DNA of 64,000 nucleotides from Schmidtea nova (GCA_044892505.1 CM097884.1:79546001-79610000); one strand, 5' to 3'; numbered from the stretch's first letter, positions 14,870 to 43,179 are shown. Program-made: numbers and translations. Notes: generated by a model not told the origin, from the letters alone.

Positions 14870-15052
14870 ACATTATATTCACATTTTTATGAACTAAACT
14901 ATTTCCATAAATTAAATGGTATTGATCTGTGTTTTGTTTGTTCTTAGTTAAATTTATTTCTATTTATTTAATCATATAATTTTTTACTCGACGGATAATA
15001 TTAATCATTGGTAACATAATTGCTGCATCATAAAATGGGTTTGTTATTTAGT

Positions 15053-15643: not shown

Positions 15644-16129
15644 CAGATAGAATACGATGTCAGATTTTGGAGTTAATTAAATCTTTGCTCGTTTTTGTTT
15701 TTGTTGTTGTTATTTCCTAAGTATTTCCTTCGATTACCTAATTCATATAATTAAATTACCCGTCACACAACGAAAGGAGTAGCGATAAAGTACTTAAATA
15801 TTATCAAATTCGTAGTTTCGTTTTGCTTGTTTGTTTTTTTTTTTGTTTTTACGATAAATACATAACCTCACACACACAATAGAACAATAATTGCGTAAGT
15901 CCTTCTACGGCCGCGTGAACCCGTAAGCATAAAGGGGGAGTAGTCCTAGCAATAGTGCTCACCTGCCCCTCATTGCTTAACCACCCTGCGCATCACCAAC
16001 TTGGTTATCAAGGGAAATAATCAAGGGCGCTCGAGTGTAGCTTACGACTATTTATGCATGATCATGGATGGGAGATCCCTAGCAATCATTAGAATTTTTA
16101 CCAAACCGTCCATGAACCCAGCATAAATT

Positions 16130-16497: not shown

Positions 16498-16959
16498 ATG
16501 GAGGAAAAACTGAAAGAAATCGAAGAATTTCTCAACACAGAAAACGAAACATTAGCAACAATTGGCAAGAAAATAAACCGATTTAGGGAAATTGAATTTC
16601 AAGAACCCACAACACAGACCGAGGAAACAGATGAATTAATAAAGATAACAGAAAGAACAAGTAAAATCGACATAAAAACCCGCTACAAATGGTACCGAGC
16701 ACGACTAGAGAATGCGGAGCTAAACATTAGATGCAGACAAATAGAACAACAATTAACCCCAACATACAATCGATGGAGGGCGCAAGGGGTAGAAGCAGCG
16801 AAAAAATACCGACAGTGCTATATATGTGAAAACAACGAGATACAAATTATGTTTTTACCTTGCGGACATTTCCGTTTTTGTAAGATCTGTGCCAGCAAGT
16901 GTGACCGATGTCCGATGTGCAACTTTACTGTGAATGAAAAAATTATAGTTTATTTGTAA
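16498..16959 (+). CDS. Coiled coil plus C-terminal IAP-type RING finger (putative E3 ligase), no BIR domain
   Basis: CYIC...IMFLPCGH..CKIC.....CPMC near the C-terminus, the IAP/MDM2-like RING pattern. Confidence 0.85.
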   Translation: MEEKLKEIEEFLNTENETLATIGKKINRFREIEFQEPTTQTEETDELIKITERTSKIDIKTRYKWYRARLENAELNIRCRQIEQQLTPTYNRWRAQGVEAAKKYRQCYICENNEIQIMFLPCGHFRFCKICASKCDRCPMCNFTVNEKIIVYL

Positions 16960-17933: not shown

Positions 17934-18542
17934 AGTGGATTATAGAGATATCCGGATAAATAGTAACAGAGGGAATATAGACCCATAGTGTAATCGTCGA
18001 CGAGATTTAGAGTAGTGCGCACTAGTAGTTAAGAGAATGCGAGTAAGCTGATTATGCAACCTTAAGTAAAGCATGCAAGGAGAATAGAAAAAATTTGAGC
18101 TGACCGGAAAAACCGGCTGACTAGGTAAAACGATAGCTAGCAATGAGTAATGAATAGAGATGATAAAATAATGATAAACGAGTCAGAAAGACTCAGGGAA
18201 TTAGAGCGCTCGAGCGACCAATAAATTGGGAAACTGTGGGAAAAGTAATTGATTTGATAAAACATAGATAATTATTACGACCTAAATAGATAATTGTGAC
18301 CAGTCTATAGATAATTTAAATAGACTAAAAATAAAGGGGAATCTGGGAATGGGAAATAATGAAAACCCAGTAATAAGTAATCCCGAAAGAAAGGGAATAA
18401 AAGCGCGACGATAACAATAATGTATCGTTGAGGACCTTTGTATTTTAGATATACAAATCAATCAAATCAATCAATCAAGCAAGAAGAATCAGAACACGAT
18501 AAGAGATAGGACAAGAAAATTGAGTATACAAAAGTAATCCCC

Positions 18543-20426: not shown

Positions 20427-20477
20427 AAAGAGTTAGTACAAAAAGATGAGGAAGTAAGAAAAGAAGCAGAAAAGGAA

Positions 20478-26400: not shown

Positions 26401-29400
26401 CACATACAATCGCCGTAATGTCATCAAACACAGGTCCAGTACTAACCACGACAATAGAGATTAACGGAAGAGAAATCGAAGCAATGATCGACACTGGAGC
26501 AAACATTTCCGCCATCGACATCAAATGGATACCACAGGAGCAAAGACGAGAAATAGAAAGGACAAACGTCCACGTAATTGCATGTAGCAAAGAAGTTGTA
26601 GAAGTAGCAGGAAGATGGTGGGTAAAAATACGCCACTTAAACACAGAAATCGATACGTACGTAGCAGTCATACCAGCATTAAGCGTACCTTGCATTATCG
26701 GAACAGATTTGATGCCAGCATTATTTAAAGAGATTGTAATCGATCTCGGAACAATGAGACTAAAAGATCGCACAGGACAAATATGCGCAATAGAAGCCAA
26801 AGTGACAAGTTCAAAGCAAATGATAATACCCGCAAGAAAGGAGAAAATATGTTATGTAAAAATAGATCCGACAATCCAAGGGGATATGATTTTCGAACCA
26901 AGCAAAAGATTCGAGAAAAGAAAAGCATTGCCAATGGCAAGAGGACTAGTCAACATAAATGATAATGGAGAAATCCCAATAAACGTGGTAAATTTCAACG
27001 AGGAGGATAAAATAATCTACGAAAACGAAAGATTAGGTAAATTAACCCCAATGATGGATATAGAACTACCAATAGCAGGAGCAGAGAAAGATAAAGAACC
27101 AACATGGAATATTGATAGTGAATTATTAAATGAGAATCAAAAGAAGCAATTAGAAAAACTGCTGACAGAGTATAAGGACATATTTGCAACATCCGATTTG
27201 GATCTAGGAACATGTGATGTCACACTACATACAATACCATTAACGGATGAAACACCAATTGCATTAAGACCGTACAAATTAGCGGAAGCACAGAAAGCAG
27301 TAGCGGAAGCAGAAGTGAAGAAAATGTTGGATGCAGAAGTAATCGAACCAAGTTGCTCACCCTGGCAATTTCCAGTGGTAATGGTAAAGAAGAAAGACGG
27401 AACACAAAGATTCTGCATAGATTATCGAAGATTGAACACAGTGACCAAACGAGATACTTACCCATTACCGGACATCAACGAAATGTTACTAACACTACAA
27501 GGAGCAGTACATTTTACGTCGTTAGATCTGAAAAGCGGATATTGGCAAATAAAAATGAAGGAAGAAGATAAGGAGAAAACTGCCTTTACCATCGGTAGAG
27601 ACTTATACCAATTTCGGAAAATGCCATTTGGATTAACCAACGCACCAGCATCATTTCAGAGATGCATGAATTTCGTCACCCATGGAATAAAACAGTGTAT
27701 GGTCTACATAGACGACTTATTGATTTACTCTAGTACATTCGAACAACACATACAGGATATTCGAGATGTATTCGTTAGACTTAGACAGTGGAAGTTAAAA
27801 CTCAAGCCATCAAAATGCGATTGGGCAAAAGAAAAGGTTACATTTTTAGGACATATAGTGTCAGCAAAAGGAAAAGAACCGGATCCTAGAAACATCGACA
27901 AGGTAAAAGAATGTCCAGTACCAAAAACAATAACCCAGATACAAGAGTTTCTTGGATTGTGTGGATACTACAGAAAGTTTATAAAAGATTACGCCGGAAT
28001 AGCAAAACCTATACAGGAACTAGTCAAGAAAGATGTATCATTCATATGGGGAGATGAACAACAAACAGCCTTTGAAACATTGAGAGATAAACTGATAACC
28101 GCACCTATATTGGTACACCCAGACTTCAAGAAGCCATTCCTACTTGCAACGGATGCAAGCGGATATGCAGCAGGAGCAGTATTAGGACAATACGACGACG
28201 AAGGAAAAGAACGGGTAATCGGATATTATAGCCGGACATTCAAAAAGCACGAAAAAAATTACTCGGTGACAGAACGGGAAGCATTAGCAATTATACTAGC
28301 AATTAAACACTTTAAATATTTATTATGGGGACACATCATCTGCATAACAACAGATCACCAACCGCTTGTATGGTTAGGACAGCATAAGGAAACATCCAGT
28401 AGATTAATGCGATGGGCAATGCAGCTACAGGAGTACTCACCAGACATAAAATTTAAATCAGGAAGAGCGAATGCGAATGCAGATTGTATGTCAAGACTGA
28501 CATTTCCAGAACTAACCGATCCTGATGTACAACGAATTTGTGTGTTAATAGCGGAAGATTTAGATTTTAGTGAGTTAAAGAAAGATCAACAGGAAGACAA
28601 AGAATTAGGACAGATCATAGAGTTCCTAACATCTCGAAATATGGAAGTATTCAAGGATAATAAGGAATTAAAGGAACATATAGGAAAGTATCAACATCGA
28701 TATATAATAAATAAAGGATGGTTGTTAATACAAGATGGTGAAAAGAGATCGATGTGTTTACCGGAAAACAGAAGGAAAGAGATAATGATCCAATACCATG
28801 ATGGAAAATTAGGAGGACATATGTCAGAGAAAAAGACAATAAATCGTATGAGACAAAAATATTATTGGCGAACAATGGAAGAAGATATAAAAGAATGGAT
28901 TAAAAATTGTCTAACTTGCGCAACTAGAAAGGATAGTGGGAAGAAATGGAAAAACCCACTACAACCAATGCCAATACCAGCAGAACCAATGACAACTATA
29001 GCAATGGACGTAATAGGACCATTACCAGAAAGTTTAAACGGAAATATTTATATACTGGTAATAACGGATTACCTGACGAAATTCCCGGAAGCATTTGCCA
29101 TGCAAGACCAAAAAGCAAAAACCGTAGCAAAAATTCTAGTGGAAGAAATATGTTGCAGATACGGAACTCCAAAACAAATACTCACAGACCAAGGAACTAA
29201 TTTTATGAGTGAGTTATTGAACGAGGTGACAAACTATTTCAGAATAGCAAAATTGAGAACTTCACCATATCACCCACAAACGAATGGACAAACAGAGAGA
29301 TTCAATGGTACATTGATTAGAATGCTATCCAACTATGTCAGCAGACACCAAACTGATTGGGACGAATACATAAAATTATGTTTAATGGCATACCGAATGT

Positions 29401-32400
29401 CGATACATGCAGCAACAAAACTAAGCCCGTTTCAACTCATGTATGGAAGAGAATGCAACATGCCCATAGATTTAGAGTATCAGCCACCATTATCGCAATA
29501 TATGGAAGATGACGACTACGTAACCAAATTCAAAGAAAGAATGCAGGAAATATGGAAAACGGCAGAACTCAACATTAAATTTTATCAGGAAAGTTATAAG
29601 GACTTACACGACCAGAAGAAAAACGTTAAAGCGAACGACCTAAAACCAGGAGACTGGGTGATAATAGAAACTCCCGAAATAATACCAGGAACGGTTAAGA
29701 AACTCCAAAGACCTGGAAGAGGACCTTATGAAATTATATACAAAAAGGACAATAATGTCAAAGTTAAGCTAATAAATCGACCGTTAATACGACCCATATA
29801 TGTAAACACCTGCAGATGTAAGAAGGTGCCTAAAACGATAACTACAACACCAGAAAATCGAATAATAACTAGATCACAAACAGCCAGGATAAATATGCTC
29901 AGAGCTAATGCAACTGAAGACGACAAAGCAGAAATAAGGCAAAAAGAAATCAGAAATAAAGAAATCATACTGAAGGCGAGAGAGATAATGGGAAGATGGC
30001 ATGTTAGAGACGAAGCAGGCATATCAAGGGACATTAGACATATAATTAGCCGTTACGCACAAGGATTACCAACCGAACCAATTATTTCTGAATTATTGAT
30101 AAAAATCCCGGAAATACTCTTATTGAAAGATGTAGGAGGACAACCAGCCTTACACAATGCGATAGAGTGTAAAAACATTGAAAGAGCAAAAGAATTCCTA
30201 AAAATCGCAAAAGAAACAAACCAAAACTTGGACGTAGGGAATCGTGAACAAGAAACTCCATTAATGACAGCCGCAATCCACCAAGCAGATAAAGAAATGA
30301 TAGATCTATTGATAAAAGCTCATTTCAGTTGGACAGAACGAGATAGAGAAGACAAAACAGTGCTAAATCACGTAATATGGAGTTCTCACCAACCAATGCT
30401 GAAATACATAATAGCTAACTCCACTTGGGAGATAGACGAACTAGTTAAAGGAGACATTATCAAAGAGGCAATCAAAATTGGTAAATGCAACACGATCCGT
30501 AAGTTAATCAAATGGAAACGACCAGAAGATGATACATGGGTCTTAGACATAAACGAAGTGTACAGCGAAGGACAAAACGCACTGTTAAGATACCTTTTGA
30601 AATTTACTTGTGATCAGAAGACATTACTAACCTTATTAGACAGGGGAAACATAAACATCACAAAGAATGAAGAAGAACACAAATTCGATAAAGAGAAGGA
30701 GGTCTTATTCAACAAAATTAGGAAATGGTGTGCGAAACCACTTGATAAACTAATAACATACAAAGACATAAATAATTTTAACGATAAATACCAGACGATA
30801 GTAAGTGAGTACGAGGAATTAGTAAAAATCTTAAACCATCCCGAAAAATGCAAACAGGTTTTGGAGAAAAAAGAAAGAGAAAGTAACAAGAAACTCACAC
30901 CACTCTTCAAAGCAGAAGCACCATATCAAGCTAGACTAGATGCGATACAAGAAAAAGCAAAAGAATTGTTACCGGAATTCGAGAATAGTAAACATGCACT
31001 GGAAATACTCGGTGCATTAGTTGAAAAAGTACACGCATACGCAAAAGGAACATACAATGGTAACGATATAACGACTATAAAAAAGGAGATGCCAGTAACA
31101 TTTTTACTACCAAAGGACAGAATAATGCCCATACATAGAGCTCTACGAAATGGCAAAGATAAAAAAGTAATGGAAATTGCAAGAGTAATGTTAAGCTGCG
31201 GAAGCAACATGAATATGGTAGACGAGAAAGGAGATACACTCATGATATTTGCAGCAAGGGCCAAAACGAAAACAAAAGTGCTGGAAGAACTATACAAAGC
31301 AGGTGCAGGACTTACAGGAAAGACAGACAAAGATAATTCAATTCTGGATGTAGCATTACTAACACATAATTGGGAAATGGTCAACTTCATTAAAACAATC
31401 TCAAATCAGGAAGAAATAGATTACCTAACTGATACGGTCAGGAAACCCAGTGTACTAACAATGATGCATAATGTCGAACTAACAGAAGCAATACTTACGT
31501 GGATAAATCCGAATACTAACGAACCAGCATTCAGGATTAATGAGTTTACAGAACATAACCAAAATTGGTGCATAAGAAGTGCCTTAATAACGTATAAATG
31601 GCCAGAGATATTGAAGATGTTTATGGAAAGAAAGGATCTAAGGATCACAACCAGCCCGAAGGAAGAAAAGTACACAGGCAAATGGAAAGAATTGATGAAG
31701 ACATACATCAACAATTGGATCAAGGCCAAAAAGGAAATCTTGGAATATAAATCCACTAACAAAGTAATACCGGAGCAGGTAGAAACACAAGAATTTGAGG
31801 CAAGTAATCTAACGACATTAGCATATGCAAAATTGATAGAAGAAATCAATGTCGAGGACGACATTTTCGACGAGCCAGGGGGAGATGACAATACAGATAG
31901 TGACGACGATAACAACTCAGAAAATTCGAACGATCACGAACCACCCGATAAAGAGGAAAACGAGAGAAAAGACAAGAAACGAGACAAAGAAGAAAAGAAA
32001 AATGAAGACGAAAAACAAAAAGATGAAGATGGAGAACAAGGAAAAAACGACCAAGGAGATAAAAATGACACCCAAAGAACAGGTTATAAATCAACCATAA
32101 AACCATTCTTCAAACCAGAATTACTATTATTAACAGTGATTTTAACGTTAATTAACCCAAGTCAAGGAATGACATGTGAAGAAAGGGCAATAATACAAAT
32201 AAAAAACGCGAAAGGAATCGAACGAGTATGTTGGTCAAAAAAAGACAAAATCACGGAACAAAATAGCCCGATGGATTGCAGAATCTCAGAACACGAACAA
32301 GAAATCATAGAGATCAACGACCTAGATCTAAATACCTGGTACAAAATATGCACCGTTAGAAAACAAAAGCATCCAAGATCACACAACACAATCGCATGTG

Positions 32401-35400
32401 CAAAATACCAAACACCTAAAGCAGCCATGACAATACAACAGTCACCCAAAGGAGATTACATCATCGAAAAATGTGGAAGAACAGAGACACAGGGAACAGA
32501 AAACAAAAAACCCCAGGCAATAGATAAGCAAACAACACCAACTATACGAATTACAATAGAGAGGCCCGAAGCGAGAGTTGCCACAAACGAAACCGAAAGA
32601 GTGACTTACCAAATGGAAGTATTATGCTTAGCACTCATACTAATAATAATAAAACGACTAGAGGAAGGGATAGAAATCGAAACTATGACAATAACAGAAG
32701 TAGAAGATACACAGAATACTAACATAAAATGTTGGGCGAGGAATAACGAGGAAATCGGCGTAAATGAAATAAGGAAAAGTCGAAAACCAACAACGAATAA
32801 AGTAATTAAAGTATCCGAAGTAAAAGCAGATAAAACGTACAAACTATGCCTACTAGAAAAAGAGAGAAACAAGAAAGGTACCACAAAATGTAAAACATTC
32901 CAACCTGGAGAAGTAATAAAGTTCAGAAGGAGAACGAGGAAGAGAAATAAACAAATCAAGCGGAAAGTAAACATAACATTAGAAATAAAAGAGATAGAAC
33001 CAAATGTGAAAGGAGTATGCTGGAGGAAGTACGAAAAAGAAGTAAATAAAAGAACGACACCACAATGTCGAACAAACACAGGAACAACGACGATTCAAAT
33101 AAAAGGTTTAGAAAGTAAACAAACCTACGAAATATGTTTGGTAAAGAAAAATGATCAGATAACGATAAACGACCTAGAATGCGGAATATATACAACTTCA
33201 TCCGGAACAAGAACCAAAACGTTAACACGGAAAAATAAAAGGAAACAACAAAACAAAGAAAAACCGAAGTACACCACTACCTTTAAAAACAATAAACAAC
33301 CAACAAACCAAGAAGTTACGACGAAACCCGAGAGAAAAACATCAGCAACTCTAACATTATGGAAAATAGAGAATAAAACATTAGAAATATGTTGGATAAT
33401 AGTACAGAAACATATAAGAAGACAATCAAGAGAATGCAGAAAAACAAATAAAGAAATCAAGATCGAAAAACTACAATTTAATAGCGAGTATGAAGTATGC
33501 GCAATAGAAATAATGGACGCACTAGGAAACCAACAAGAAAGATGCGAAACCTACTATACACCAGCGAACGCAACATCAAAAGGAATAACAAGGAAACTCG
33601 AATTCAGGGAACTAAGCCAAACGAATGAACAAATGGACGCAGAAAAAACAATAACCGACCCTCAAGCAAAATGGACACCCGAAGAAGTTATCAAAGAAGT
33701 CAAAAGAAAGCAAGAGGAACGAGAACAATTAATGAGAAAACTAAAGGGACAATATGGAATAATGTTCAACCAAAGCGAATCTATACAAACAGACGAGAAT
33801 AAAGAAATTAAAGAACTAATCGGCTTAGGAATATTAACAGCGACCATACCAGTAATAATCGCGTTATCAGCTATATGGATACGCAAGATAAGCCCAAGAA
33901 AATCAACAACCCAATGGCTAAATATAGATAATACAAGCCATGGAGTCGAAATACTAGAAGCACGAGAAGAACCAAGATCGACCAGGAATGAGAAAGAAGC
34001 AAAAGGCGGAAAACTGGGAATGAACAACGAAGACAAAGAAATAGAAGAGATTAAAAGCAAAGAGACGAAATATGAAAGGCGAACCAGAAGCCTACCGCAG
34101 AGTTCAAAATGGTTGGGTCTAACAATAATATTGACATTAATCAATAGGGAAGAAGCAATAAACCCACAGACAGGGATAAAAGTAATAAATGTTCAGGAAG
34201 TCGAGAAAATATGTTGGTATAGAGAAGATGAACCAATTGGAGAAAATAACCCACTAAAATGCATAATCCGAAAATCCGACCAGGATATAGTACGAATAGA
34301 AGAAATGGATGGAGGGACCATGCATCGGATATGCATAATAAAAAAGGAAAAGAAGTCGGGGCTACCTAAGACAGTCGTATGTCAAAAATATGAAACACCT
34401 AGACTTGAATGGTATAGAGTAAAACCAACAAAGAAAGAAATCAAAAACACAATAGATCAACCAGCAACTCAGATAAGAAACACAACGGATAAACCAGGAG
34501 AAGGGGAGAGAAGCACCAATAACACGAGAGAAAGAATATCACCTCAACAGGAGTGCGTATGCATAGCATTAATACTAGCAATGTCCAAACGTCTCGACAG
34601 AGGAATAATAATAGAACAAATGGCCATAACAATAAGAAAAACAAGCAGCAACAAACTATGCTGGGGAACATACAACGAACCAAGGAAGGAATACCAAGTT
34701 CAGACAAGCGACGAATCACAAACAAACAAGGAAATCGAAATACAAGAAATACAAATGAATGAAGAAGGAAGTATATGTATCTGGGAGAGAGGAATCCAAG
34801 AGGGAATAGAGCATTGCAAGACATTCCAAAAAGGAGAGGTACTGAAATTCGATGAAGAAAAATTAACAAAGACAGAAAGAACTCTGACAATAACAGGACT
34901 CGATCAAACAGTTAAAGGAATATGTTGGACAAAGCATAACCCAGAAGGGGAAGAAGACAATCTAACCCACTGTAAAGAAACAGGGAATAAGGAAAAAGTC
35001 GAATTAAAGAAAATGGAAGTAAATAAGACATACGCGATATGTACCTTCACCAGAAAAGGTTCAGAAAAACCAGAATGCGGATTATATCAGATCTCAGAGA
35101 AACTTCAACAACAGATCAAACCAGGAAACGTGGAAAACCGAACAAAAGAAAATAACGTCAAACAACTACTAAACCGCCATTGGTCTACCCAAGAAGTAAT
35201 GAACAAAGTCAAGAGTCAAATACAAAAAGAGAAGAAGCCAGAGGCTCAAACCCAAAATGAGATAAAAGCGAATCAGAAGAAAATCAAAGCAACAAACCGT
35301 GGAAAAACCGTAATAGGACTAATCAGTATAGGAATATTAATAGCATATGGAATACTGACGACAAGCATAATAGTATATTGGAGATACAGAAAGAGAAACA

Positions 35401-35564
35401 AAGCGACAGCCATACAATGGCCAGATATCAAAATTATGAAACAAGGAATAGAAATACCAGAAGGGATACAAAAAGAATTTCAAAGAAGAACGAAAGGTAA
35501 AGAATTCTGGAAACAAATAGAAGATAAAGAACGATACGACAGAAGGACAATAATGAAGGTATAG
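20478..35564 (+). CDS. pol: 5028-aa polyprotein: Ubl x3 / AT-hook / Bcl-2-like / Env / PR / dUTPase-like / RT / RNase H / IN / ankyrin x2 / two FN3-like membrane proteins
   Basis: Uninterrupted 15-kb ORF in frame with gag. DTGA (26490), YIDD (27705), TDASG, HHCC, D-D-E and GPY motifs are all intact. Confidence 0.96.
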   Translation: METEINRGERKEIWKRGMMVIMPNKSVFRFQYNVKEEVRILFNKVNQMVPGVTKLPREAFLQIEGAPKVKLEVTDIWENMGVVETKRNVMIIKEIEPEEIPPPVRHETRISRIFKGKMIRRRLKEIDELEKKMRKVEVIEDKSEPTPEIDKNEPELTENIQWETNQIAHINMLRNTTREFSDEEEDSDISSLAGDLLNESEDENKEREVIKTSEPTQIKVDEIQKLLDNSLEVIYNEEFMDKKQYRKFMKVLLQMNYKEWLQDREVDMLNRYVGKLIEEPLLNYTISIIINTSTPRIWIKTPFTDDIYRWVEDRLGSSYKNKFIYSQNRLVKKRTHLVETGIWPGEITLLSICDEKEEENLQEVAKEANTCFERRIKPRLEYEKERVLRKNLNSLIEQIIPQVKKHRKELMRSEYEKLKRCIECIRDTSHTRWSQISHDKLIAKMGKTMFRQGKITDLKISVELPNEDTKEIEVVADCTIKELINVINETLVQREPEDEWEDDIIIQYNEHVLWDHDERRLYKIGIWDNHQTIHVIRMDDTPRETAKDEKRERERRKKVVRKLQQIVEIYRNWRTWPEWENVLEKLNLNRRIRTPVEKQWNEKGKCWEPKEGEYEEEYEREMEDDCKPEMGRVCMVTRKATPIDLDGPETVAIWLEKEKQKTEEFVELLKTNAHGKRKIIKGLADFFVVNGEDITCLRKVAKAIAEYKRVNEWCPEQLDHVIRKWRNQEFSQEIPQKVHLRIIYPNKDKEELWVGIAEKIRDIKKKLRYEPPFHLQHQGRSLDNSLEIGITPAQLDLMNTLTVEAIAGQPLKRKEENHKPHGSISTPSPMKSVLTPGTSSRRSETTPRGNREMTPPQPYDVDEILTDSDDMIEELTELTEEKDDNIFERIQELPTTIQATNPGETEVEEEIIIEEINDLAEDETRGTNVENVRLTQEMERWLEERANEPRDVTEETGRATRFVETGTGMDRRPRGRPKTDPANVVIRNKDEKRQDQWEVCLKKLNKIAEIKEKETTPICQGEEWISKTIMEILAIIDPELKKYWRITEISEKAKSLHSAIAPILPEFIKEKTKSNHLDWQGTTTLIKKLTEGAETDNKYVIAIAYTIYNLLTLSRGRPKPTALERHIKNTAKIIAREIEPYIINKGGWETFIKTNQKKTQAKNMKKKFEKILEELEKEQAGTGNAKSSMNLSSIIMMMLIWMISTDSATAFEVFDCDQMKLGEKYSLRGTEQCKDATPVELQKIKKEQWYHVYQEAELIKTMVNECKVQKTRFAFYCGRGHYSAIVMPGTEREPIVLQGEDCEALFKHGEVTTRDKIKIRGKPGMMLQQTYYVAGRITGGEGYCQGETYPIFGVPATNLVVMDTYIVELKSYEAFFEPTTGEMKTLSMCKIDRSMCQTGMSTLVYKPKVNECQLQLLQGAKFDEIQGKTFQEEDDDDKARAKHLKEALENKKQLKPDHREKRIEMRATPTVLITTNQDVGMRFIKGKATLKCSTTVYETNYPGIYVSKQEVPNAKPKIDTMDIKLHLYVNNKMDFLFHRGQASLQKVYYDLINNDCILNREILKTKLAVAITNPDSAMPLLPLREGHFGRVVGEAMYVYICEKTHAPLAATTQLKPGTCTNELEIDYKGKVRYVQPVTRIINPPGFEPNPFNCSNAYGPLYQKPDGKWVMFPGRSEVIAPREFELMQLSKDRQFSDVDVSNNGIYSPKDLEAARQNILFPARREALLSNIVTITGGTNYREGPNYELLLSPAHFKKATENMMKAMWGRFLIFGQMMAGILGVILIIQIVRVIITQMLACFDIYKREKKVNWKMVVGFLPFLAKTMVLHGHSKDIHRIKRLLKILAKMKGTDEEVGRKFKKIMNDEQARQQLKRERKGLWERVKGYKTQNDSSDDDDDDDDYKGGQVYKNQAPQYIEKNPADAWKCYAPPPTMYQEPLQGGRTTTMQMMPMTNVYPMIPEDYKMRRCRSVDPQGDAHTIAVMSSNTGPVLTTTIEINGREIEAMIDTGANISAIDIKWIPQEQRREIERTNVHVIACSKEVVEVAGRWWVKIRHLNTEIDTYVAVIPALSVPCIIGTDLMPALFKEIVIDLGTMRLKDRTGQICAIEAKVTSSKQMIIPARKEKICYVKIDPTIQGDMIFEPSKRFEKRKALPMARGLVNINDNGEIPINVVNFNEEDKIIYENERLGKLTPMMDIELPIAGAEKDKEPTWNIDSELLNENQKKQLEKLLTEYKDIFATSDLDLGTCDVTLHTIPLTDETPIALRPYKLAEAQKAVAEAEVKKMLDAEVIEPSCSPWQFPVVMVKKKDGTQRFCIDYRRLNTVTKRDTYPLPDINEMLLTLQGAVHFTSLDLKSGYWQIKMKEEDKEKTAFTIGRDLYQFRKMPFGLTNAPASFQRCMNFVTHGIKQCMVYIDDLLIYSSTFEQHIQDIRDVFVRLRQWKLKLKPSKCDWAKEKVTFLGHIVSAKGKEPDPRNIDKVKECPVPKTITQIQEFLGLCGYYRKFIKDYAGIAKPIQELVKKDVSFIWGDEQQTAFETLRDKLITAPILVHPDFKKPFLLATDASGYAAGAVLGQYDDEGKERVIGYYSRTFKKHEKNYSVTEREALAIILAIKHFKYLLWGHIICITTDHQPLVWLGQHKETSSRLMRWAMQLQEYSPDIKFKSGRANANADCMSRLTFPELTDPDVQRICVLIAEDLDFSELKKDQQEDKELGQIIEFLTSRNMEVFKDNKELKEHIGKYQHRYIINKGWLLIQDGEKRSMCLPENRRKEIMIQYHDGKLGGHMSEKKTINRMRQKYYWRTMEEDIKEWIKNCLTCATRKDSGKKWKNPLQPMPIPAEPMTTIAMDVIGPLPESLNGNIYILVITDYLTKFPEAFAMQDQKAKTVAKILVEEICCRYGTPKQILTDQGTNFMSELLNEVTNYFRIAKLRTSPYHPQTNGQTERFNGTLIRMLSNYVSRHQTDWDEYIKLCLMAYRMSIHAATKLSPFQLMYGRECNMPIDLEYQPPLSQYMEDDDYVTKFKERMQEIWKTAELNIKFYQESYKDLHDQKKNVKANDLKPGDWVIIETPEIIPGTVKKLQRPGRGPYEIIYKKDNNVKVKLINRPLIRPIYVNTCRCKKVPKTITTTPENRIITRSQTARINMLRANATEDDKAEIRQKEIRNKEIILKAREIMGRWHVRDEAGISRDIRHIISRYAQGLPTEPIISELLIKIPEILLLKDVGGQPALHNAIECKNIERAKEFLKIAKETNQNLDVGNREQETPLMTAAIHQADKEMIDLLIKAHFSWTERDREDKTVLNHVIWSSHQPMLKYIIANSTWEIDELVKGDIIKEAIKIGKCNTIRKLIKWKRPEDDTWVLDINEVYSEGQNALLRYLLKFTCDQKTLLTLLDRGNINITKNEEEHKFDKEKEVLFNKIRKWCAKPLDKLITYKDINNFNDKYQTIVSEYEELVKILNHPEKCKQVLEKKERESNKKLTPLFKAEAPYQARLDAIQEKAKELLPEFENSKHALEILGALVEKVHAYAKGTYNGNDITTIKKEMPVTFLLPKDRIMPIHRALRNGKDKKVMEIARVMLSCGSNMNMVDEKGDTLMIFAARAKTKTKVLEELYKAGAGLTGKTDKDNSILDVALLTHNWEMVNFIKTISNQEEIDYLTDTVRKPSVLTMMHNVELTEAILTWINPNTNEPAFRINEFTEHNQNWCIRSALITYKWPEILKMFMERKDLRITTSPKEEKYTGKWKELMKTYINNWIKAKKEILEYKSTNKVIPEQVETQEFEASNLTTLAYAKLIEEINVEDDIFDEPGGDDNTDSDDDNNSENSNDHEPPDKEENERKDKKRDKEEKKNEDEKQKDEDGEQGKNDQGDKNDTQRTGYKSTIKPFFKPELLLLTVILTLINPSQGMTCEERAIIQIKNAKGIERVCWSKKDKITEQNSPMDCRISEHEQEIIEINDLDLNTWYKICTVRKQKHPRSHNTIACAKYQTPKAAMTIQQSPKGDYIIEKCGRTETQGTENKKPQAIDKQTTPTIRITIERPEARVATNETERVTYQMEVLCLALILIIIKRLEEGIEIETMTITEVEDTQNTNIKCWARNNEEIGVNEIRKSRKPTTNKVIKVSEVKADKTYKLCLLEKERNKKGTTKCKTFQPGEVIKFRRRTRKRNKQIKRKVNITLEIKEIEPNVKGVCWRKYEKEVNKRTTPQCRTNTGTTTIQIKGLESKQTYEICLVKKNDQITINDLECGIYTTSSGTRTKTLTRKNKRKQQNKEKPKYTTTFKNNKQPTNQEVTTKPERKTSATLTLWKIENKTLEICWIIVQKHIRRQSRECRKTNKEIKIEKLQFNSEYEVCAIEIMDALGNQQERCETYYTPANATSKGITRKLEFRELSQTNEQMDAEKTITDPQAKWTPEEVIKEVKRKQEEREQLMRKLKGQYGIMFNQSESIQTDENKEIKELIGLGILTATIPVIIALSAIWIRKISPRKSTTQWLNIDNTSHGVEILEAREEPRSTRNEKEAKGGKLGMNNEDKEIEEIKSKETKYERRTRSLPQSSKWLGLTIILTLINREEAINPQTGIKVINVQEVEKICWYREDEPIGENNPLKCIIRKSDQDIVRIEEMDGGTMHRICIIKKEKKSGLPKTVVCQKYETPRLEWYRVKPTKKEIKNTIDQPATQIRNTTDKPGEGERSTNNTRERISPQQECVCIALILAMSKRLDRGIIIEQMAITIRKTSSNKLCWGTYNEPRKEYQVQTSDESQTNKEIEIQEIQMNEEGSICIWERGIQEGIEHCKTFQKGEVLKFDEEKLTKTERTLTITGLDQTVKGICWTKHNPEGEEDNLTHCKETGNKEKVELKKMEVNKTYAICTFTRKGSEKPECGLYQISEKLQQQIKPGNVENRTKENNVKQLLNRHWSTQEVMNKVKSQIQKEKKPEAQTQNEIKANQKKIKATNRGKTVIGLISIGILIAYGILTTSIIVYWRYRKRNKATAIQWPDIKIMKQGIEIPEGIQKEFQRRTKGKEFWKQIEDKERYDRRTIMKV
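21330..22890 (+). other. Three ubiquitin-like (beta-grasp) domains in the polyprotein (~21330-21535, 21849-22090, 22689-22890)
   Basis: Second copy LKISVELPNEDTKEIEV...TIKEL...IQYNEHVL..ERRLYKIGI....TIHVI follows the ubiquitin pattern. The other two are weaker. No terminal GG. Confidence 0.55.
23540..23940 (+). other. Bcl-2-like domain in the polyprotein
   Basis: BH2-like IEPYIINKGGWETFIK (compare WIxxxGGWxxF), preceded by helical segments. The BH1 position lacks the canonical NWGR. Confidence 0.6.
24048..25970 (+). other. env: Envelope glycoprotein domain, chuvirus G-like: signal 24048-24107, ectodomain from 24108, TM ~25782-25856
   Basis: Signal-like SIIMMMLIWMISTDSATA, then FEVFDC...SL....C...Q...V.EC.......CG..H.S.....C....G. 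About 560 aa of Cys-rich ectodomain and a TM helix. Confidence 0.8.
26430..26780 (+). other. Aspartic protease domain
   Basis: AMIDTGANIS and CIIGTDLM. Confidence 0.93.
26795..27055 (+). other. Degenerate dUTPase-like beta domain between PR and RT
   Basis: IPAR......V...ARGLV.....IPINVVN......I....RLG pattern. Catalytic motifs not evident. Confidence 0.55.
27130..28500 (+). other. Reverse transcriptase and RNase H
   Basis: RFCIDYRRLN, LDLKSGYWQI, MPFGLTNAP, YIDD, FLGH, TDASG, EREALAI, TDHQPL and NADCMSR. Confidence 0.97.
28530..29880 (+). other. Integrase (HHCC, DDE, GPY/F)
   Basis: H...GGH...CLTC, MDVIGP, TDQG, YHPQTNGQTERFN and GPYEI. Confidence 0.96.
30050..31650 (+). other. Two blocks of ankyrin repeats in the polyprotein
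   Basis: GQPALHNAI, ETPLMTAA, KTVLNHVI and QNALL, then MPIHRAL, GDTLMIFAA and NSILDVAL, at ~33-35-aa spacing. Confidence 0.85.
32121..35564 (+). other. Two tandem paralogous type-I membrane protein units with Cys-containing FN3-like repeats (4 + 3 modules)
   Basis: Signals at 32121-32168 and 34110-34157, TMs at 33816-33881 and 35310-35381. Repeated module CW...C...I..L....Y.IC...C..Y.T. Confidence 0.7.
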
Positions 35565-35689
35565 GGGCGGATTATGACTGTAAATAATAGTGTAAATAAC
35601 AAAGCATTACCGTAATAGTATGGGTATCGATATTATAAAAATTGTAAAAAGATAGAAAAGCAAAGTAAATGATGTATATAATTTAGAAA

Positions 35690-36046
35690 ATGACCGAACA
35701 GGACGAAACAACTGAAATAACTATGGCCATGAGATGGAAAGCACAATGCGATTTATTAGTACGGGCAGTCAACTCATTACAGAACCAATTAGCGGAAAAA
35801 CAAATGTTACTATCAGAAAGTTACAATAATTGTTTTGAACAATTACACAGAATAGAGGAACAACAAAGAGTGATAACCGAGCTCACCAGAGAAAATCAAA
35901 CTATAAGCAACATCAATCAAAGACAAGCGATAGAAATAAACCACTTGACACGAGGAGAAAGAGAAGAATCTGAAGAAGGATGGATGAGTTGGGTAATAAA
36001 TAGATTAAACAACGAAGCGGAACCAGATTCAACGAATGAGCCATAG
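35690..36046 (+). CDS. Small coiled-coil protein, 118 aa
   Basis: Clean ATG to stop, heptad pattern, same codon style as the element. Confidence 0.7.
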   Translation: MTEQDETTEITMAMRWKAQCDLLVRAVNSLQNQLAEKQMLLSESYNNCFEQLHRIEEQQRVITELTRENQTISNINQRQAIEINHLTRGEREESEEGWMSWVINRLNNEAEPDSTNEP

Positions 36047-36138
36047 ATAAATAAAGCGAAAAACTGTAAATATGTAAAAATAAAAACAAGAAAAATCAAA
36101 AATAAATGACAAGTCGAATGTATATATTATTGTAGAAA

Positions 36139-37515
36139 ATGGACAGAGAAGAACGAACAATCGAAATCTTGAGATTAGAAAACAGAAAATGGAGCAAGAG
36201 GCTCACATGCGGGAAGTGTAACAATTTATTACGAGAACCTAGACAAACGATATGTGGATGTAGAATATGTACAAAATGTATACAAGAATTAGATGCAACA
36301 GGAATAACAACATGCCCAGAATGTAAAGAAGGAAGAATAGTGTTGGACGAAACCAGAACGGATAAAGCAACCCAGAGAGAAATTATGAGCACCATAACGG
36401 AGTGCGTAAATACACCTTGTACATGGCAAGGACAAATAAGCAATCTAGAAAATCACATGGAAAATTGCGAAGAGAAAAGAGCCGAATGCGAGAAGTGTCA
36501 ACAGATAATAATTCTAAAGAAGAAAGAACAACACAAGGACGAATGTAAAGAAGAAGAAATCGCATGCAAGTATTGTGAAACTCGAGAGACAAGGAGGAGA
36601 ATCGAAGAAGAACACTTAAATATAACAGAGGAGAAAGTATGCGGACAATATGTAAGCAAATGTCCAAACAATTGCGAAATAACAGAAGAAATAAAGTTAC
36701 ATGAACATTGGAAAATATGTACCGAAAGGCCAAGAGAATGTCCATATAACAAGCATGGATGCAAGGAAAAGCGGACGCGAAAAACAATGAAACAACACTT
36801 GGAGGAAGCAGCATTAATGCATGTGGAGATGACAAACGAGGCGGCAAAAGAAACAGAACAGACAATCCAGAAACTGGAAAAGGAAGTAGAATCACATAAA
36901 ATAATGATGAGTTTACTACTAGAAACAAGAGAGCAGTTTGAACTAACTCGCAAAAGAATGGAAGAAAAAATAATAGCCATAGAAGAATTGGGAAAAGGAA
37001 TGAAAATACAATATAATCAATTAATACGAGAAATTGACGAAAGAAAGGACTTACCAATTGCACCTTACCTATGGAAAATAACAGATTTTAGAGACAAACT
37101 AACAGAGGCCCGAAATATGACTAAAACAGCAGTAATAAGCCCACCATTTTATTTATGGAAAAATGGGGTTAAAATAAGATTGAAAGTATACCCAAATGGA
37201 GACGGAAGAGGACAAGGAACACACGTGTCAATATTTTTCTCGTTATGTAAAGGAGAATACGATGACCTAATAGAATGGCCCTTGAAAGTAGGAGTCATTA
37301 TAAGAATCAAAAGTATAGGAAAACCAGTAGAAAAGTTCTTTGAAACAGACAAACATACGAGTACAAGCGAAAAACCAACAACAGAATGCGGACTAGCAGC
37401 AGGAGAACCAATGTTTATAAGGAAAGAAAACCTATGGGAGCGACTGTATGCAGACACGCTATACATAGAGATGGAGAGGCATGAGAAAACAGACAGAAAA
37501 GGATGGTTGGCGTAA
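36139..37515 (+). CDS. TRAF-family protein (RING, TRAF zinc fingers, coiled coil, MATH), intronless
   Basis: CGKC...CGCRICTKC...CPEC, several TRAF-type zinc fingers, and MATH motifs YLWKITDF, SPPFY and YPNGDGRGQGTHVSIF...GEYDDLIEWP. Confidence 0.95.
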   Translation: MDREERTIEILRLENRKWSKRLTCGKCNNLLREPRQTICGCRICTKCIQELDATGITTCPECKEGRIVLDETRTDKATQREIMSTITECVNTPCTWQGQISNLENHMENCEEKRAECEKCQQIIILKKKEQHKDECKEEEIACKYCETRETRRRIEEEHLNITEEKVCGQYVSKCPNNCEITEEIKLHEHWKICTERPRECPYNKHGCKEKRTRKTMKQHLEEAALMHVEMTNEAAKETEQTIQKLEKEVESHKIMMSLLLETREQFELTRKRMEEKIIAIEELGKGMKIQYNQLIREIDERKDLPIAPYLWKITDFRDKLTEARNMTKTAVISPPFYLWKNGVKIRLKVYPNGDGRGQGTHVSIFFSLCKGEYDDLIEWPLKVGVIIRIKSIGKPVEKFFETDKHTSTSEKPTTECGLAAGEPMFIRKENLWERLYADTLYIEMERHEKTDRKGWLA

Positions 37516-37626
37516 TGAAGAAAGTAACCATGTAAATAAACTGTATAAAACAATATGAAATAACAAATAATCAAAAACAATAAAAATAAAAACTGATTAA
37601 ATATTCTTTTATCTGTAATTATAGAA

Positions 37627-38689
37627 ATGGGAAATATAGAGGTAACCTTACAAGAAGTAACCGTACATCAAGACGAAATGATCAGAAATCACATGGAGCG
37701 GATTGGGATATGGATTCACGCCTATTATCGAAAACAGGAGGAATTAGAAAGACAAACCCAAGCACTAAGAGAAGCCGAGAAATCGAATCAAAGAAGTCGA
37801 GAAAAAATAGAAGAAGTCTACAAACTGCTAAGACAACAAAACGAATACTACAAAGGGATGATGAAAGAGCGACGAGAGGATAGGGATAGACAACAGATAA
37901 AAACAGACCATAAGATTCAGTCAATCACAGAACAAGCAAGATATTGGAAAAAAAGAGGCAAAAGACTCTTACAAGGAAGCAAGGGAGATAATAGAACGAA
38001 CAGCGTACAGCGATGATTGGAAACTGTTTAAAGAGATCGATGAATTAAAAGAAGAATTAGGGAAAAAGATCAGTCAAGAAGCGTCAAATAAAGTATGGAG
38101 TAAGAAAAGACAACAATTCATCAGGGAACAAGCCAAGAAAATTAAAGAATTAACTCACCAAGTGCAAAGAATGGGAGAAGATTTAGCCAATCAAGAACAA
38201 TTAAAAGGTATGCTGACCGGAATGTGGAATCACAAGGAAGAAAACATGAAAAGAGACATAAATGGATATCAAGGAGTGATTACCCAGAAGAAAATAGAAT
38301 TAAAAAGAACTAAAGAAAGACTGGAAGAAACGAGGCAGAGTTATGAAGAGAACATAACAAATTTGACAAAAGAAAACGAAGAACTGAGAAAGAAGCTAAC
38401 AGAAAAACCAGTACCCACAAAGGAAACAAGTATCACAGCAGCAGTGACCGAAATGATAGAGAAAGAAGAGAGAGAGAAAAAATTAGCAGAACTAGAAAAA
38501 CAAATAGAAACCCTAACAGAGCAGGCGAACTATCTGGAATACTTATTAGATGAAGAGATCCAGATATCCCACACGTACCGAGAGGAAGTGGAAATGTGGA
38601 GGAGTACGGTAATATGGATGCCACTCCCCATAAATCAGGTGGAACCTCAAGACGAAGGTTTTCACGAACCTAACGAAACCCTCGTGTAA
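37627..38689 (+). CDS. Long coiled-coil protein (~353 aa) split by a 1-nt frameshift in an A7 run at 37948-37954
   Basis: Removing one A joins ORF 37627 to an open frame (KEAKDSYKEARE...) that continues into ORF 38162-38689. Confidence 0.7.
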
Positions 38690-38768
38690 ATGAGCGGAAA
38701 CCAATTGTAAATAGATGATGTAAAATAAAAAGCGTCAAGCTGTATTGACTCCTATGTAAAGATAGAAA

Positions 38769-39329
38769 ATGAGAAAGCTCGCAATACCAATACTCCTAGG
38801 GTTAATAACCATCACCCTACAGAGAGAAGATCTACAACTTACCGAAACCCAATTACGAGTTCTACCCGACAAAACCTACCAAAAAGTAGACAGCCTAATC
38901 GAAGAAGTAATTAAAGAAATCAACGAATTCCGACAGAAATATCCCCACAATCAAGATCATCAAATCCAACAAATCTTAGATAACCAACAACTGAAACTAA
39001 AAGAAACCCAAAAAACCCTGAAAGAAGGTAGAGAGCCCATAAAAAGCCTAGCCCAAGCTGAAATAGAATATCAAGAGAAATGGATCATAGCAATCATCAT
39101 AATCCTCTCAATCAGCGTAACTATCATCGCAATCACAATCCTGATTGCCTCCTACCGGATAAAAATCCTCAAACAGAAACAAACCATCGTCAACCAAACA
39201 TCAAGGCGAGACAACCGAACCCAAAGACGTATGAGAAACCATCTAGATCGAATTCAGACCCACTACGAATTAGCTACAATCAATGAGAGAACTCAAACCC
39301 AACCCAATGCGAGCCGGAGGATCGAATAG
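38769..39329 (+). CDS. Small type-I membrane protein (signal peptide, helical ectodomain, TM, basic tail), 186 aa
   Basis: MRKLAIPILLGLITITLQ and WIIAIIIILSISVTIIAITILIA. Confidence 0.75.
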   Translation: MRKLAIPILLGLITITLQREDLQLTETQLRVLPDKTYQKVDSLIEEVIKEINEFRQKYPHNQDHQIQQILDNQQLKLKETQKTLKEGREPIKSLAQAEIEYQEKWIIAIIIILSISVTIIAITILIASYRIKILKQKQTIVNQTSRRDNRTQRRMRNHLDRIQTHYELATINERTQTQPNASRRIE

Positions 39330-40853
39330 ACTTTGTGAACATTTCTGATGAACCTTTGACTATCCTGTGACAATAATCTGATAATATTCAACTATCCTAT
39401 GACAAATCTTATGATGTATATAAATTCTATCACCTTAAGTGATTTTCTTTGTGTTTATGTGTATATCTGTAAAACTTTTTATGTATGATGTTATAAGTAG
39501 ATATGTATAATTAATTGCGGGACGCAATTTTAGGGGTCCCCGAGTGATGTTGGGCCCACCAATTGGTCTAAAAAGGCAAAAATATTGTACTAATTTAAAC
39601 AATAAATACAAATAATAACCACAAAAAACATTCGAAAAACCTAAATTAAAAATTAAAATAAAATAATAAATAATAAATAATAATTACTAAATTTCCAGCA
39701 AAGGAAGAAAATCAAATTGACACGAGAACGAGCAGTATGGGGGTCTGAAATAAGAAAATTACAAATAAAATCAAATAAAAGTACAATTAATTGGTTAATT
39801 ACTTGAAAAAATCGAGACCACCCAGCGAGAAATCTGAACCGGAAATTTAAAATGGTTTATATTAAAATAAAATAACAAAATTACTTTGATGGACGGCCTG
39901 ATCCTGATTGGTCAATCTGACCAACTGGATCAGTATAAATACCGATCCAAAAATCATACAAAAAACACCTAAAAACTTAGCTACCGAACTAATCTATCAT
40001 AGTCAGTTACACCAACTTTGATACGACGAATATTGTGTAAAATTTTGGAAACGCTGCATCTTGGATTTTAAGAGTAAATTTTGTTGTATTGTATTTGCAT
40101 TAATTTTATGATATGTTTACATGATTCCCATTTATTTCATTTCATTTAATATAATTTATTACTATTAATTGCTCTATTTTTCTTATGCTATTATTTTATG
40201 ATATGATAAATATACTTCCTCAGTAGCTCACGCTGCGAGGGAGCAAGCCGTAAATGTGGGATTTCACCGTTCCACAAGATGGTGAGCAGAGTTTTTATTG
40301 GTATTTTTTATTTAATTTAATTTTATCGGAGGTTTCACGTTACGGTAAAGTTGTGCAGGGACAAGGACACGAGTAAAATTAGTAGACAGTGTTTAACATT
40401 AGTCAATTAACATTCGATCAGACAGGAGAGAATAAACTACAGTATCAATTATCATGTCAATCGATTTCGCATATGCACACGATTTTTTTTGAACCCACAT
40501 AGCTGATCGAAATAATGTCCGGACACACCGAGACGATTTCGACATTTCAACGATAATTTCAATTAGGATATAAATAACCACATAATCAGATCGACGCTAC
40601 TGATTGAATAAGTAAAATCGTAACCTGATCGCTGTAAATAGCGCAGGTGATAGTATGTAAATTTTTAATAAACATATCCCGATCGCTGTAGATAGCGACG
40701 GTGTTAATTGAATAGCTTAGAAAATATTTTTTTATTCCTCCCTTTCATATTTTTTTTGTTTTGTTGATCAACGAGAGAAACACATTTCATCAGGTCTCAC
40801 CAAAATTTGCGGATTCGTCACAGTAAAATTTATTAGCATTATTATTTTCTCAG

Positions 40854-41354
40854 ATGAAATCAACGATACTGGATGAATTTCTAACAACCCAACGTCGTGT
40901 GGCACGGGACGAAAATCCTCAAATCCGGACGCAACAGAAGAAATTGAAGCCGCTTCCACAGGAACTTCTCAGAACGCTAAATGCATTGATGTATAAATGG
41001 AGACGGGAACTAGGAAAGAAATGTCCATTTTCGATTTGGGCCGGTGGATTAGATACCATCATATATCGTGGAGGCCCCGGATGGGAAATTCAGGACGAAA
41101 GAGACCGGGAGACGACAGCTCTGTTCATCATAGTGGTGACAGACAGTGAAGGAAATCCAACGACAGTGATCCATTGGGGATATGTCTCACCGCTCAAGTT
41201 GCTTCAATTCGGGTTGATTCCGAATCACCTACCGAAAACGTGCCATGGACGCCCCAAACTAAACTGTTCGATCGCTCACATCCGACGAGATCCAGTCAAT
41301 CACGGATTGCATATTACCCCCGTTCACGGCCTCAAGCGAAGCGTTTTTTACTAA
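40854..41354 (+). CDS. LTR ORF-A, 3' LTR copy
   Basis: Same as 14369-14869 except Y>C and M>I. Confidence 0.6.
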   Translation: MKSTILDEFLTTQRRVARDENPQIRTQQKKLKPLPQELLRTLNALMYKWRRELGKKCPFSIWAGGLDTIIYRGGPGWEIQDERDRETTALFIIVVTDSEGNPTTVIHWGYVSPLKLLQFGLIPNHLPKTCHGRPKLNCSIAHIRRDPVNHGLHITPVHGLKRSVFY

Positions 41355-41537
41355 ACATTATATTCACATTTTTATGAACTAAACTATTTCCATAAATTAA
41401 ATGGTATTGATCTGTGTTTTGTTTGTTCTTAGTTAAATTTATTTCTATTTATTTAATCATATAATTTTTTACTCGACGGATAATATTAATCATTGGTAAC
41501 ATAATTGCTGCATCATAAAATGGGTTTGTTATTTAGT

Positions 41538-42128
41538 ATGACGGAAACTAGCCAACAGCGGGAATTGGATAAGGCGTGGAGAATCCGCCGAGCCTTAGAA
41601 AAGGAGCTAAATCAGGAAAAAGCATTACGAGCCAAGGCAGAAGCTCAGATTCAGTATTTACGGACCAGCTGGTTCACCCCAGCCCGTATGAAGGAGCAGA
41701 TGAGTCGGACAGAAAGGGCTCAAAAGACAGCTGACGATTATCGCACCGAATGGGAGGCCACAAAAATTGAGTTGCGCCGATGTTTCCATTCGGTGACGAC
41801 CTCATTTATCGAGTCCGAATTGAAAGCACAAATCCGACCCATCACCTACCAGAAATGGGTAGGAGAACAGAAAGTGGCCTGCTCGGTCAGTACGGACACC
41901 GATGGGCTCGAGGCAACCACAGTGCAGAGTCGGGTGGAAACCACCACTGTACCAAACCCCGTCGGGAAAACGACCAAGCGAAAGCGAATCGGTTCCAAGC
42001 GCCGTCGCCAAAGAAAGCTGTTTTCTCAACAGTTGCAGACACAAGTAACCACTATGGCAGAAATGTCGGAAACCGAGTGGTTAGCAGAGATGTTCCCTCC
42101 TGAAGGAATTTTCAAAGAATTTCTGTAA
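41538..42128 (+). CDS. LTR ORF-B, 3' LTR copy
   Basis: Same as 15053-15643 except A>T and L>F. Confidence 0.6.
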   Translation: MTETSQQRELDKAWRIRRALEKELNQEKALRAKAEAQIQYLRTSWFTPARMKEQMSRTERAQKTADDYRTEWEATKIELRRCFHSVTTSFIESELKAQIRPITYQKWVGEQKVACSVSTDTDGLEATTVQSRVETTTVPNPVGKTTKRKRIGSKRRRQRKLFSQQLQTQVTTMAEMSETEWLAEMFPPEGIFKEFL

Positions 42129-43179
42129 CAGATAGAATACGATGTCAGATTTTGGAGTTAATTAAATCTTTGCTCGTTTTTGTTTTTGTTGTTGTTATTT
42201 CCTAAGTATTTCCTTCGATTACCTAATTCATATAATTAAATTACCCGTCACACAACGAAAGGAGTAGCGATAAAGAACTTAAATATTATCAAATTCGTAG
42301 TTTCGTTTTGCTTGTTTGTTTTTTTTTGTTTTTACGATAAATACATAACCTCACACACACAATAGAACAATAATTGCGTAAGTCCTTCTACGGCCGCGTG
42401 AACCCGTAAGCATAAAGGGGGAGTAGTCCTAGCAATAGTGCTCACCTGCCCTCATTGCTTAACCACCCTGCGCATCACCAACTTGGTTATCAAGGGAAAT
42501 AATCAAGGGCGCTCGAGTGTAGCTTACGACTATTTATGCATGATCATGGATGGGAGATCCCTAGCAATCATTAGAATTTTTACCAAACCGTCCATGAACC
42601 CAGCAAATATATAAGTTCAAATTCGAAATTGATTTATTAAATTTGTAATTAATTTTCGCTTTACGTATTTACACGCATTTCAATGTACATTAAAACAAAA
42701 AGAAAACACATAAGGTATAGTAACTACAAGAGTTACTTACATATATCCCCCCGGAAAAAGTGCGGCGCATGTGGAAACCATTGTCTGGAGCGAACACACT
42801 TTTTATTTACATATTTATTTACAGGTGTATATAGATTTGCGACAACTTTGGGGAGGTAGAGAAAACAAATAAAAAAAGGGTTTATTGTAGGTTTTCTTTT
42901 TATTATAAGTGTTTTTAGGTTATTTTATGGTGCGTATCAACCGTGTAGGGGTATTTTCCGGGTGTCCTACTGTTCTTTCACGTACGCAATATGCGAAAGA
43001 TTTCTTTTTGGATCTTGTATTTGATGAAGGTCTGTCTTGTTGATTGTTTTTTAGAATCGATTTTTTGTTTGATTGTTTGTTCTTTATGTCTTGAGTTTCA
43101 AATGATGTGTTTGGTTTGTATGTTTGTTCGGTGTTGTTTGGTATTGTTGTATTTGTCTGAAAATCATTCGTTTGATTTT

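Follow-up and report, generated by a model that had tools for sequence, protein, structure and literature searches.

The analysed window, 64,000 nt of one strand from Schmidtea nova (GCA_044892505.1 CM097884.1:79546001-79610000), contains a Burro-like Ty3/gypsy element bounded by long terminal repeats (LTRs), which carries a cassette of four genes, A to D, downstream of pol. We propose that a short, mostly AUG-free leader from the 5′ LTR is probably cis-spliced to an AG just ahead of the start codon of each cassette gene. This kind of element is already known; the four-gene cassette with conserved acceptor-like starts is real and conserved. Judged from the sequence, acceptor function is supported for gene A, likely for genes B and C, and less so for gene D, the putative acceptors of genes B to D being backed by conservation. 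The initial annotation had suggested that the accessory mRNAs arise by spliced-leader (SL) trans-splicing or by splicing of an LTR leader; the acceptor-like AGs were borne out by a GT…AG deletion in one genomic copy (L117/L125) and by pyrimidine-AG (YAG) triplets in a sister family (F2), but the poly(A)/operon part was left without support, AATAAA occurring at chance level. The evidence leans to cis-splicing over SL trans-splicing because the LTR carries a conserved donor-like site and the recorded junction is cis.

Acceptor-like starts of the cassette genes

The presence of four same-strand genes with spacers of 125, 92, 111 and 79 nt, and of AGs ending at 35686, 36135, 37624 and 38765, was verified by length and position. 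Each start consists of TAG, a run of 3, 3, 2 and 3 A in genes A to D, respectively, and ATG.

35565..35689 (+): spacer 1, with TGTAAATA twice, TGAT, and the putative acceptor TAG ending at 35686
35690..36046 (+): gene A, 118 amino acids (aa), no Pfam family above the cut-off
36047..36138 (+): spacer 2, with TGTAAATA, TGAC, and an acceptor-like TAG ending at 36135
36139..37515 (+): gene B, 458 aa, TRAF-like (TRAF zinc fingers, MATH)
37516..37626 (+): spacer 3, with TGTAAATA, CTGAT, a T-rich tract, and an acceptor-like TAG ending at 37624
37627..38689 (+): gene C, coiled-coil-like, with a frame shift near 37.95 kb in this copy
38690..38768 (+): spacer 4, with TGTAAATA, TTGAC, and a TAG ending at 38765
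38769..39329 (+): gene D, 186 aa, without a Pfam family; by eye, the N-terminus and one segment are hydrophobic

Gene C is split into pieces of 129 and 172 aa in this copy and forms a single 353-aa open reading frame (ORF) in 54 of the 62 copies in which its start was found. In shuffled spacers, a YAG within 3 nt of the ATG had probabilities of 0.12, 0.09, 0.07 and 0.13 (joint, 9e-5); such a YAG preceded 15 of 164 internal in-frame Met codons, and TAG-AA(A) preceded none of the 139 Met codons of the polyprotein. The TGAY words reported about 15–30 nt upstream were indeed present, their A lying 14, 26, 28 and 17 nt before the AG, but were individually weak (p 0.09–0.18 each), and that of gene A was not constant among copies (TAAT, CGAT). 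AATAAA does occur in three of the four spacers, as described, but without excess over chance (observed 0/3/3/1, expected 0.7/1.35/1.4/0.3); its density in the pol coding sequence is 2.4 per kb, and it is missing from 3/8 spacers of both families together. Ahead of its AG, each spacer contains two to four ATGs. The idea that very short upstream ORFs terminate at the TAG was rejected, as it holds for genes A and B only and F2 has CAG in place of TAG.

The family comparison used 70 copies, comprising the 30 best matches and 40 picked by an exact match to site B, of which 61 were aligned; the family has at least 182 copies with the TRAF gene start in the genome assembly. Across the aligned copies, variation in spacers 1, 2 and 3 was 1.2, 1.8 and 2.1%, respectively, compared to 7.6% at 222 fourfold sites. 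The TAG was kept in 58/59 copies at gene A and in 62/62 at gene C. In F2, found via a MATH profile and examined in five copies, all five retained the four genes at 32–58% protein identity, one having an early stop in gene C, with spacers of 123, 89–90, 89–90 and 73 nt. The F2 YAG lies 6–7, 1, 1 and 2 nt before the ATGs of genes A, B, C and D, respectively, and is CAG at genes C and D. This shift in distance, together with the exchange of T and C, suggests an acceptor rather than a start context fixed to the ATG. The view that TAG-AA(A)-ATG is initiation context only, raised as the alternative in the initial annotation, is thus opposed both by the variable distance in F2 and by the GT…AG deletion ending at 35686. 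Counting all the acceptor-like starts, AG-to-ATG distances ranged from 0 to 7 nt, with every frame represented. In two of three smaller, distant elements, TTTTAG stands shortly ahead of the ORF that follows pol.

All four spacers also share a motif that the earlier description had not mentioned. TGTAAATA occurs 2/1/1/1 times in spacers 1 to 4, against 0.01–0.03 expected, is absent from 15 kb of pol, and lies 14–18 nt past every stop (at 35579, 36065, 37531 and 38706). It was almost invariant over the 61 copies, and in F2 the motif lies 15–20 nt beyond each stop, so that in the two families together TGTAAATA, once replaced by TGTAAAAA, is found 14–20 nt past the stop in 8/8 spacers, on the sense strand only. 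Its position tracks the upstream stop, not the downstream start, and a G(C/T)G(G/A)A word precedes it in 7/8 spacers. TGTAAATA resembles the Pumilio element and could also be read as a Forkhead-type DNA site. As a candidate role, it may be a protein-binding site in the 3′ untranslated region (UTR), possibly shielding messages with long 3′ UTRs.

A GT…AG deletion and a candidate leader donor

Copy L117/L125 lacks exactly the following stretch, which has GT at its left end and AG 35686 at its right, with 2 nt common to both ends.

32083..35686 (+): GT…AG stretch absent from L117/L125; its donor at 32083 is probably cryptic

L117 was noticed among six too-short copies by the spacing between search matches, not by its junction pattern. 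Thirteen large deletions were seen and ten mapped to the base, among which L117/L125 alone had GT-AG ends; the chance of a GT together with one of the four AGs is about 3e-4. Among the 93 copies with an exact gene A start, about half of the family, L117/L125 alone lacked T at –3. Half of its 5′ LTR remains and shares 99.9% identity with its own 3′ LTR over 1526 nt; the missing half could not be located within 13 kb. The most likely and simplest reading of this copy is that a once-spliced genomic RNA was reverse-transcribed.

The predicted normal donor lies in the LTR, for which the relevant features are as follows.

13063..16123 (+): 5′ LTR, TG…CA, 3061 nt, with two ORFs inside
13449-13456 (+): TATA box
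about 13480-13588 (+): predicted leader exon without ATG, its start site inferred
13589..13594 (+): predicted major splice donor GTAAAT, with T-rich sequence after it

The GTAAAT at 13589 stands about 140 nt beyond the LTR TATA box. In 42 distinct leader variants, themselves selected by a donor-like expression, GTAAAT, GTAATT or GTATGT was kept 81–117 nt beyond TATA+30, including F2 and barely alignable LTR types; 37 of the 42 leaders lacked ATG, and five F2 leaders had one. A G followed the upstream 20-mer in 104/104 matching LTRs. The donor-like site in the LTR is thus conserved, and it may well serve as the normal donor. Because AATAAA precedes this site in F2, it could have a role in 3′ end formation. 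Two other candidates in the LTR were rejected. One was ATG|GTGAG at 13797, read as a donor supplying an AUG or as a module akin to an SL: its lone non-G copy is a point variant, and the word is absent from other LTR types and has no Rfam match. The other was AG 13737, read as an acceptor, which is not kept in the second LTR subtype.

Proposed scenario and competing explanations

Considering these results, we propose the following scenario. The four genes constitute the 3′ accessory cassette of the element, and each is probably translated from its own message. Donor 13589 in the leader exon of the 5′ LTR would be joined to the AG just ahead of each ATG, removing introns of 22–25 kb between the LTR donor and the cassette acceptors, and all messages would end at a common 3′ end in the LTR. 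The deletion in L117/L125 would be a reverse-transcribed splice, and the AGs of genes B, C and D would work as that of gene A does.

Several observations weigh against this scenario. The L117/L125 event bears on cis acceptor competence at gene A only and is silent on the normal partner. Its donor at 32083, in pol, is probably cryptic because F2 showed no such donor and 3/21 family copies have it altered. The chance that the right end falls on one of the four AGs is 1e-2, and that of any GT-AG pair 0.17, so that a chance DNA deletion could also account for it. No exact leader-to-cassette junction copies were found in genome pattern searches at the cassette sites (at site D limited to the three-A variant), a weak negative since such RNA would be without a primer site. 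The TAG at gene B was present in 61/61 copies, a count that is partly circular given that 40 copies were selected by an exact match to this site. At gene D, the TAG was found in 27/60 copies, AAG stood 2 nt before the ATG in 32/60, with one spurious match, and the AAG-type starts have little T tract; variation in spacer 4 was 9.3%, not below that at fourfold sites (7.6%). Site D is the weakest of the four because its TAG is kept in 27/60 copies only. Two further deletions speak for the scenario but fall short of exact junctions. In L190, an F2 copy without the A–B spacer, the two ends lie no more than 1 nt from a GT and from the acceptor, but the junction is one base off an exact splice, and a parent allele making it exact was not found. 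In L188, the 5′ part of an LTR, ending at most 1 nt from the homologous donor position, is fused to a point close to the TGAC word, about 40 nt ahead of AG 36135; this is not an exact splice junction, and the copy's own full LTR is absent. Speculatively, L188 could have arisen by a template switch on a splicing intermediate.

Two other LTR-to-internal deletions (L015, L163) exhibited no such coincidence with donor or acceptor, and searches for junction copies at the RING, gag, LTR ORF1 and F2 sites returned point variants or unrelated matches only. In the 15 of 43 joints inspected, from four runs made up of contigs with DNA-like even depth, no GT-AG junction was present at the four AGs, which is not evidence on expression. 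Copy L181 has a long run of A in its spacer 1; this was not accepted as a poly(A) tail, as it lies within a pre-existing A run next to a secondary insertion. Separately, L015, L024 and L163 are three independent deletions with ends within 40 nt of each other (35147-35184), about 500 nt before gene A.

A retrotransposon-borne operon is possible but rather doubtful; in it, each AG would receive a host SL by trans-splicing, whether or not the preceding gene is also cleaved at its 3′ end in the spacer. Spacers of 73–125 nt with YAG acceptors fit the flatworm operon spacing of <200 or <300 nt given in excerpts of PMC5832876 and PMC12582326, which also describe flatworm acceptors as often serving cis- and trans-splicing alike, with trans-spliced introns typically longer. 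SL trans-splicing is known in Schmidtea according to excerpts of PMC10899757 and PMC12582326, and the RNA of the Caenorhabditis elegans element Cer1 takes SL1 according to a portion of PMC3315495. However, AATAAA is not enriched in the spacers, though planarians use variant poly(A) signals too, as an excerpt of PMC5068929 notes. In parasitic flatworms, AUG forms the end of the SL (PMC12582326), yet the AG-to-ATG distances fall in all frames; in addition, a stop codon follows straight after the AG of the RING gene in 14/20 copies, and both the recorded junction and the conserved LTR donor are of the cis type. A true eukaryotic operon in a retrotransposon or env-bearing provirus, whose 3′ cassette would be divided into single-gene messages by the SL machinery of the host through a repeated junction module (stop, Pumilio-type element 14–20 nt on, branch site, YAG and ATG), acting beside leader cis-splicing or replacing it, seems to us similarly doubtful.

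Routes other than leader cis-splicing and the SL operon are, even when taken together, unlikely. An internal promoter in each spacer, with TGTAAATA as the Forkhead-type site and TAG-AAA-ATG as start context, would suit the strong spacer conservation, the TATA-like words in some spacers and the weak gene D acceptor in half of the copies. It is nevertheless highly improbable: the GT-AG deletion ends on an AG, the YAG lies at 1–7 nt with variation between families, ATGs lie upstream of the AG in each spacer, and TGTAAATA keeps to the sense strand and to the upstream stop. Equally improbable is a polycistronic RNA read by termination–re-initiation. The post-stop motif could guide it, with its fixed place in 8/8 spacers and the preceding word in 7/8, but the stop-to-start gaps of 73–125 nt contain upstream ATGs, and the conservation of the YAG and the GT-AG deletion would be left unexplained. 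Mononegavirus-like gene-junction signals were dropped as an explanation, no RNA-dependent RNA polymerase domain being found by Pfam.

Element anatomy, further acceptor-like sites and related systems

Outside the cassette and the leader, the element comprises the following features.

13063-42605 (+): whole LTR element, 29.5 kb, Burro-like Ty3/gypsy
14369..14869 (+): LTR ORF1, 166 aa, with CAG abutting the ATG
15053..15643 (+): LTR ORF2, counted from the ATG after the TAG at 15051; the longest frame begins at 15035
16498..16959 (+): RING-finger gene (Pfam), with a YAG 3 nt 5′ of the ATG
18437..18448 (+): T-rich acceptor-like motif upstream of gag, followed by 643 nt without ATG
19092..35564 (+): Gag-Env-Pol polyprotein frame, with CCHC, Monjiviricetes-type fusion protein, protease, reverse transcriptase, RNase H, integrase, ankyrin and membrane tail
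39548..42605 (+): 3′ LTR, preceded by a purine-tract-like stretch

The two LTRs, of about 3060 nt, are 99.7% identical. The layout of AG and then ATG had also been reported at the RING gene (16494) and both LTR ORFs (14368, 15051), and these positions proved correct; the AG at 15051 sits within the longest LTR ORF2 frame (ATG at 15035), ahead of the second ATG at 15053, and TAG-A-ATG is also found at LTR ORF2 in the second LTR subtype. The RING gene has CAG in 14/20 and TAG in 6/20 copies, a T/C swap within the family. From the motif ending at 18448 to the gag ATG, the 643 nt contain no ATG in 17/19 copies, against 8.5 expected and 0/5000 shuffles, and the corresponding stretch is also without ATG in one F2 copy. 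Because of this ATG-free stretch upstream of its start, gag is likely read from a processed 5′ end as well. No support was found for the in-frame TAG (18507-18509) serving gag as an acceptor that takes an SL AUG, the phase differing in F2. Within 18510-19091, the gag frame is open for 194–197 codons 5′ of the first ATG, with no Met in 18/19 parsed copies and 121 such codons in F2; its ratio of nonsynonymous to synonymous polymorphism is 0.32, compared to 0.05 in gag proper. This stretch may extend Gag at its N-terminus from a non-AUG start, or it may be an AUG-free 5′ UTR under constraint.

Pfam identified the RING gene, the CCHC Gag, a 5011-aa frame (fusion protein, protease, reverse transcriptase, RNase H, integrase, ankyrins) and the TRAF-like gene. 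In this copy the polyprotein frame is interrupted by an in-frame stop at 20424-20426, absent from other copies. The following Burro-like hallmarks are present: about 30 kb with long LTRs; Gag, an env-like fusion protein and protease, reverse transcriptase, RNase H and integrase in a single frame; and extra RING, TRAF/MATH and ankyrin domains. BIR and BCL2-like motifs gave no Pfam match at E 0.01 in the element proteins, profile–profile methods not being part of the search.

Compared by description, the giant Ty3/gypsy elements Burro/GYPSM1 of planarians share with this element a size of about 30 kb, a single very large Gag-Env-Pol frame in which env sits between gag and pol, CCHC knuckles, ankyrin, RING, TRAF/MATH, tandem repeats and many copies (PMC6431247). 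They differ in TRAF placement, which is a separate gene downstream of pol here, within ORF1 in Burro1 and upstream in the D. tigrina element (PMC6431247). In the present element, Pfam detected no BIR domain, and there are four downstream genes with acceptor-like starts; the element section of PMC6431247 is silent on splicing. A literature search yielded no description of spliced Burro messages; the 2018 genome, SL3 and 2026 Burro1 papers and supplements lay outside this search, so that transcripts may be published. Planarian genomes contain abundant Burro elements, and protection of stem cells during regeneration was reported for one of the accessory proteins (cited in an excerpt of PMC13465017). 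The C. elegans gypsy element Cer1 is similar in that its subgenomic RNA undergoes cis-splicing and can also receive the host SL, with the long RNA skipping these sites, but differs in having a single spliced message instead of a multi-gene cassette, according to a portion of PMC3315495. SL-resolved flatworm operons likewise have same-strand genes separated by <300 nt, the downstream one preceded by an acceptor, but consist of host genes, mostly two per operon (excerpts of PMC12582326 and PMC5832876).

The cassette coordinates allow the splicing reading to be checked directly in RNA data. Use of an SL, if true, would make the cassette a mobile operon. In complex retroviruses such as HIV-1 and foamy viruses, one 5′ leader donor is joined to several acceptors, each before an accessory ORF, and the unspliced RNA is the genome. 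The present element differs from these in belonging to Ty3/gypsy, in its predicted donor inside the LTR, upstream of the primer site, and in having up to eight candidate acceptors over 25 kb, with leader junctions that are predicted. A leader spliced onto up to eight acceptors, if true, would represent retrovirus-like complexity reached in the Ty3/gypsy lineage.

Further features of the element and its relatives were observed. A polyprotein stretch at residues about 1050-1140, ending in NKGGWETF, has no Pfam match and is similar to a BCL2 BH2 motif. The last 1160 aa of the polyprotein (32083-35564) contain apparent repeats of a hydrophobic segment and a Cys-containing domain, with a membrane segment at the end and no Pfam match. 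Between the RING gene and gag (17396-17964) lie two tandem arrays, of 29-nt and 32-nt units, variable in copy number. LTR interiors are exchanged within the family (13063-16123; L126, L113, L004, L169, L188), the first 400 and last 240 nt being common and the middle differing, and the exchanged interiors still carry two ORFs with acceptor-like starts. In relatives of 15–17 kb (L086 2586-2690, L090 2357-2460, and L095), a conserved open frame of 34 codons precedes the gag ATG; a GTAAA resembling a donor and a TTTAG resembling an acceptor are separated there by about 32 nt. Four near-identical partial cassette matches at a spacing of about 33 kb in 590.84-590.94 Mb of C1 represent either a tandem array or an assembly effect.

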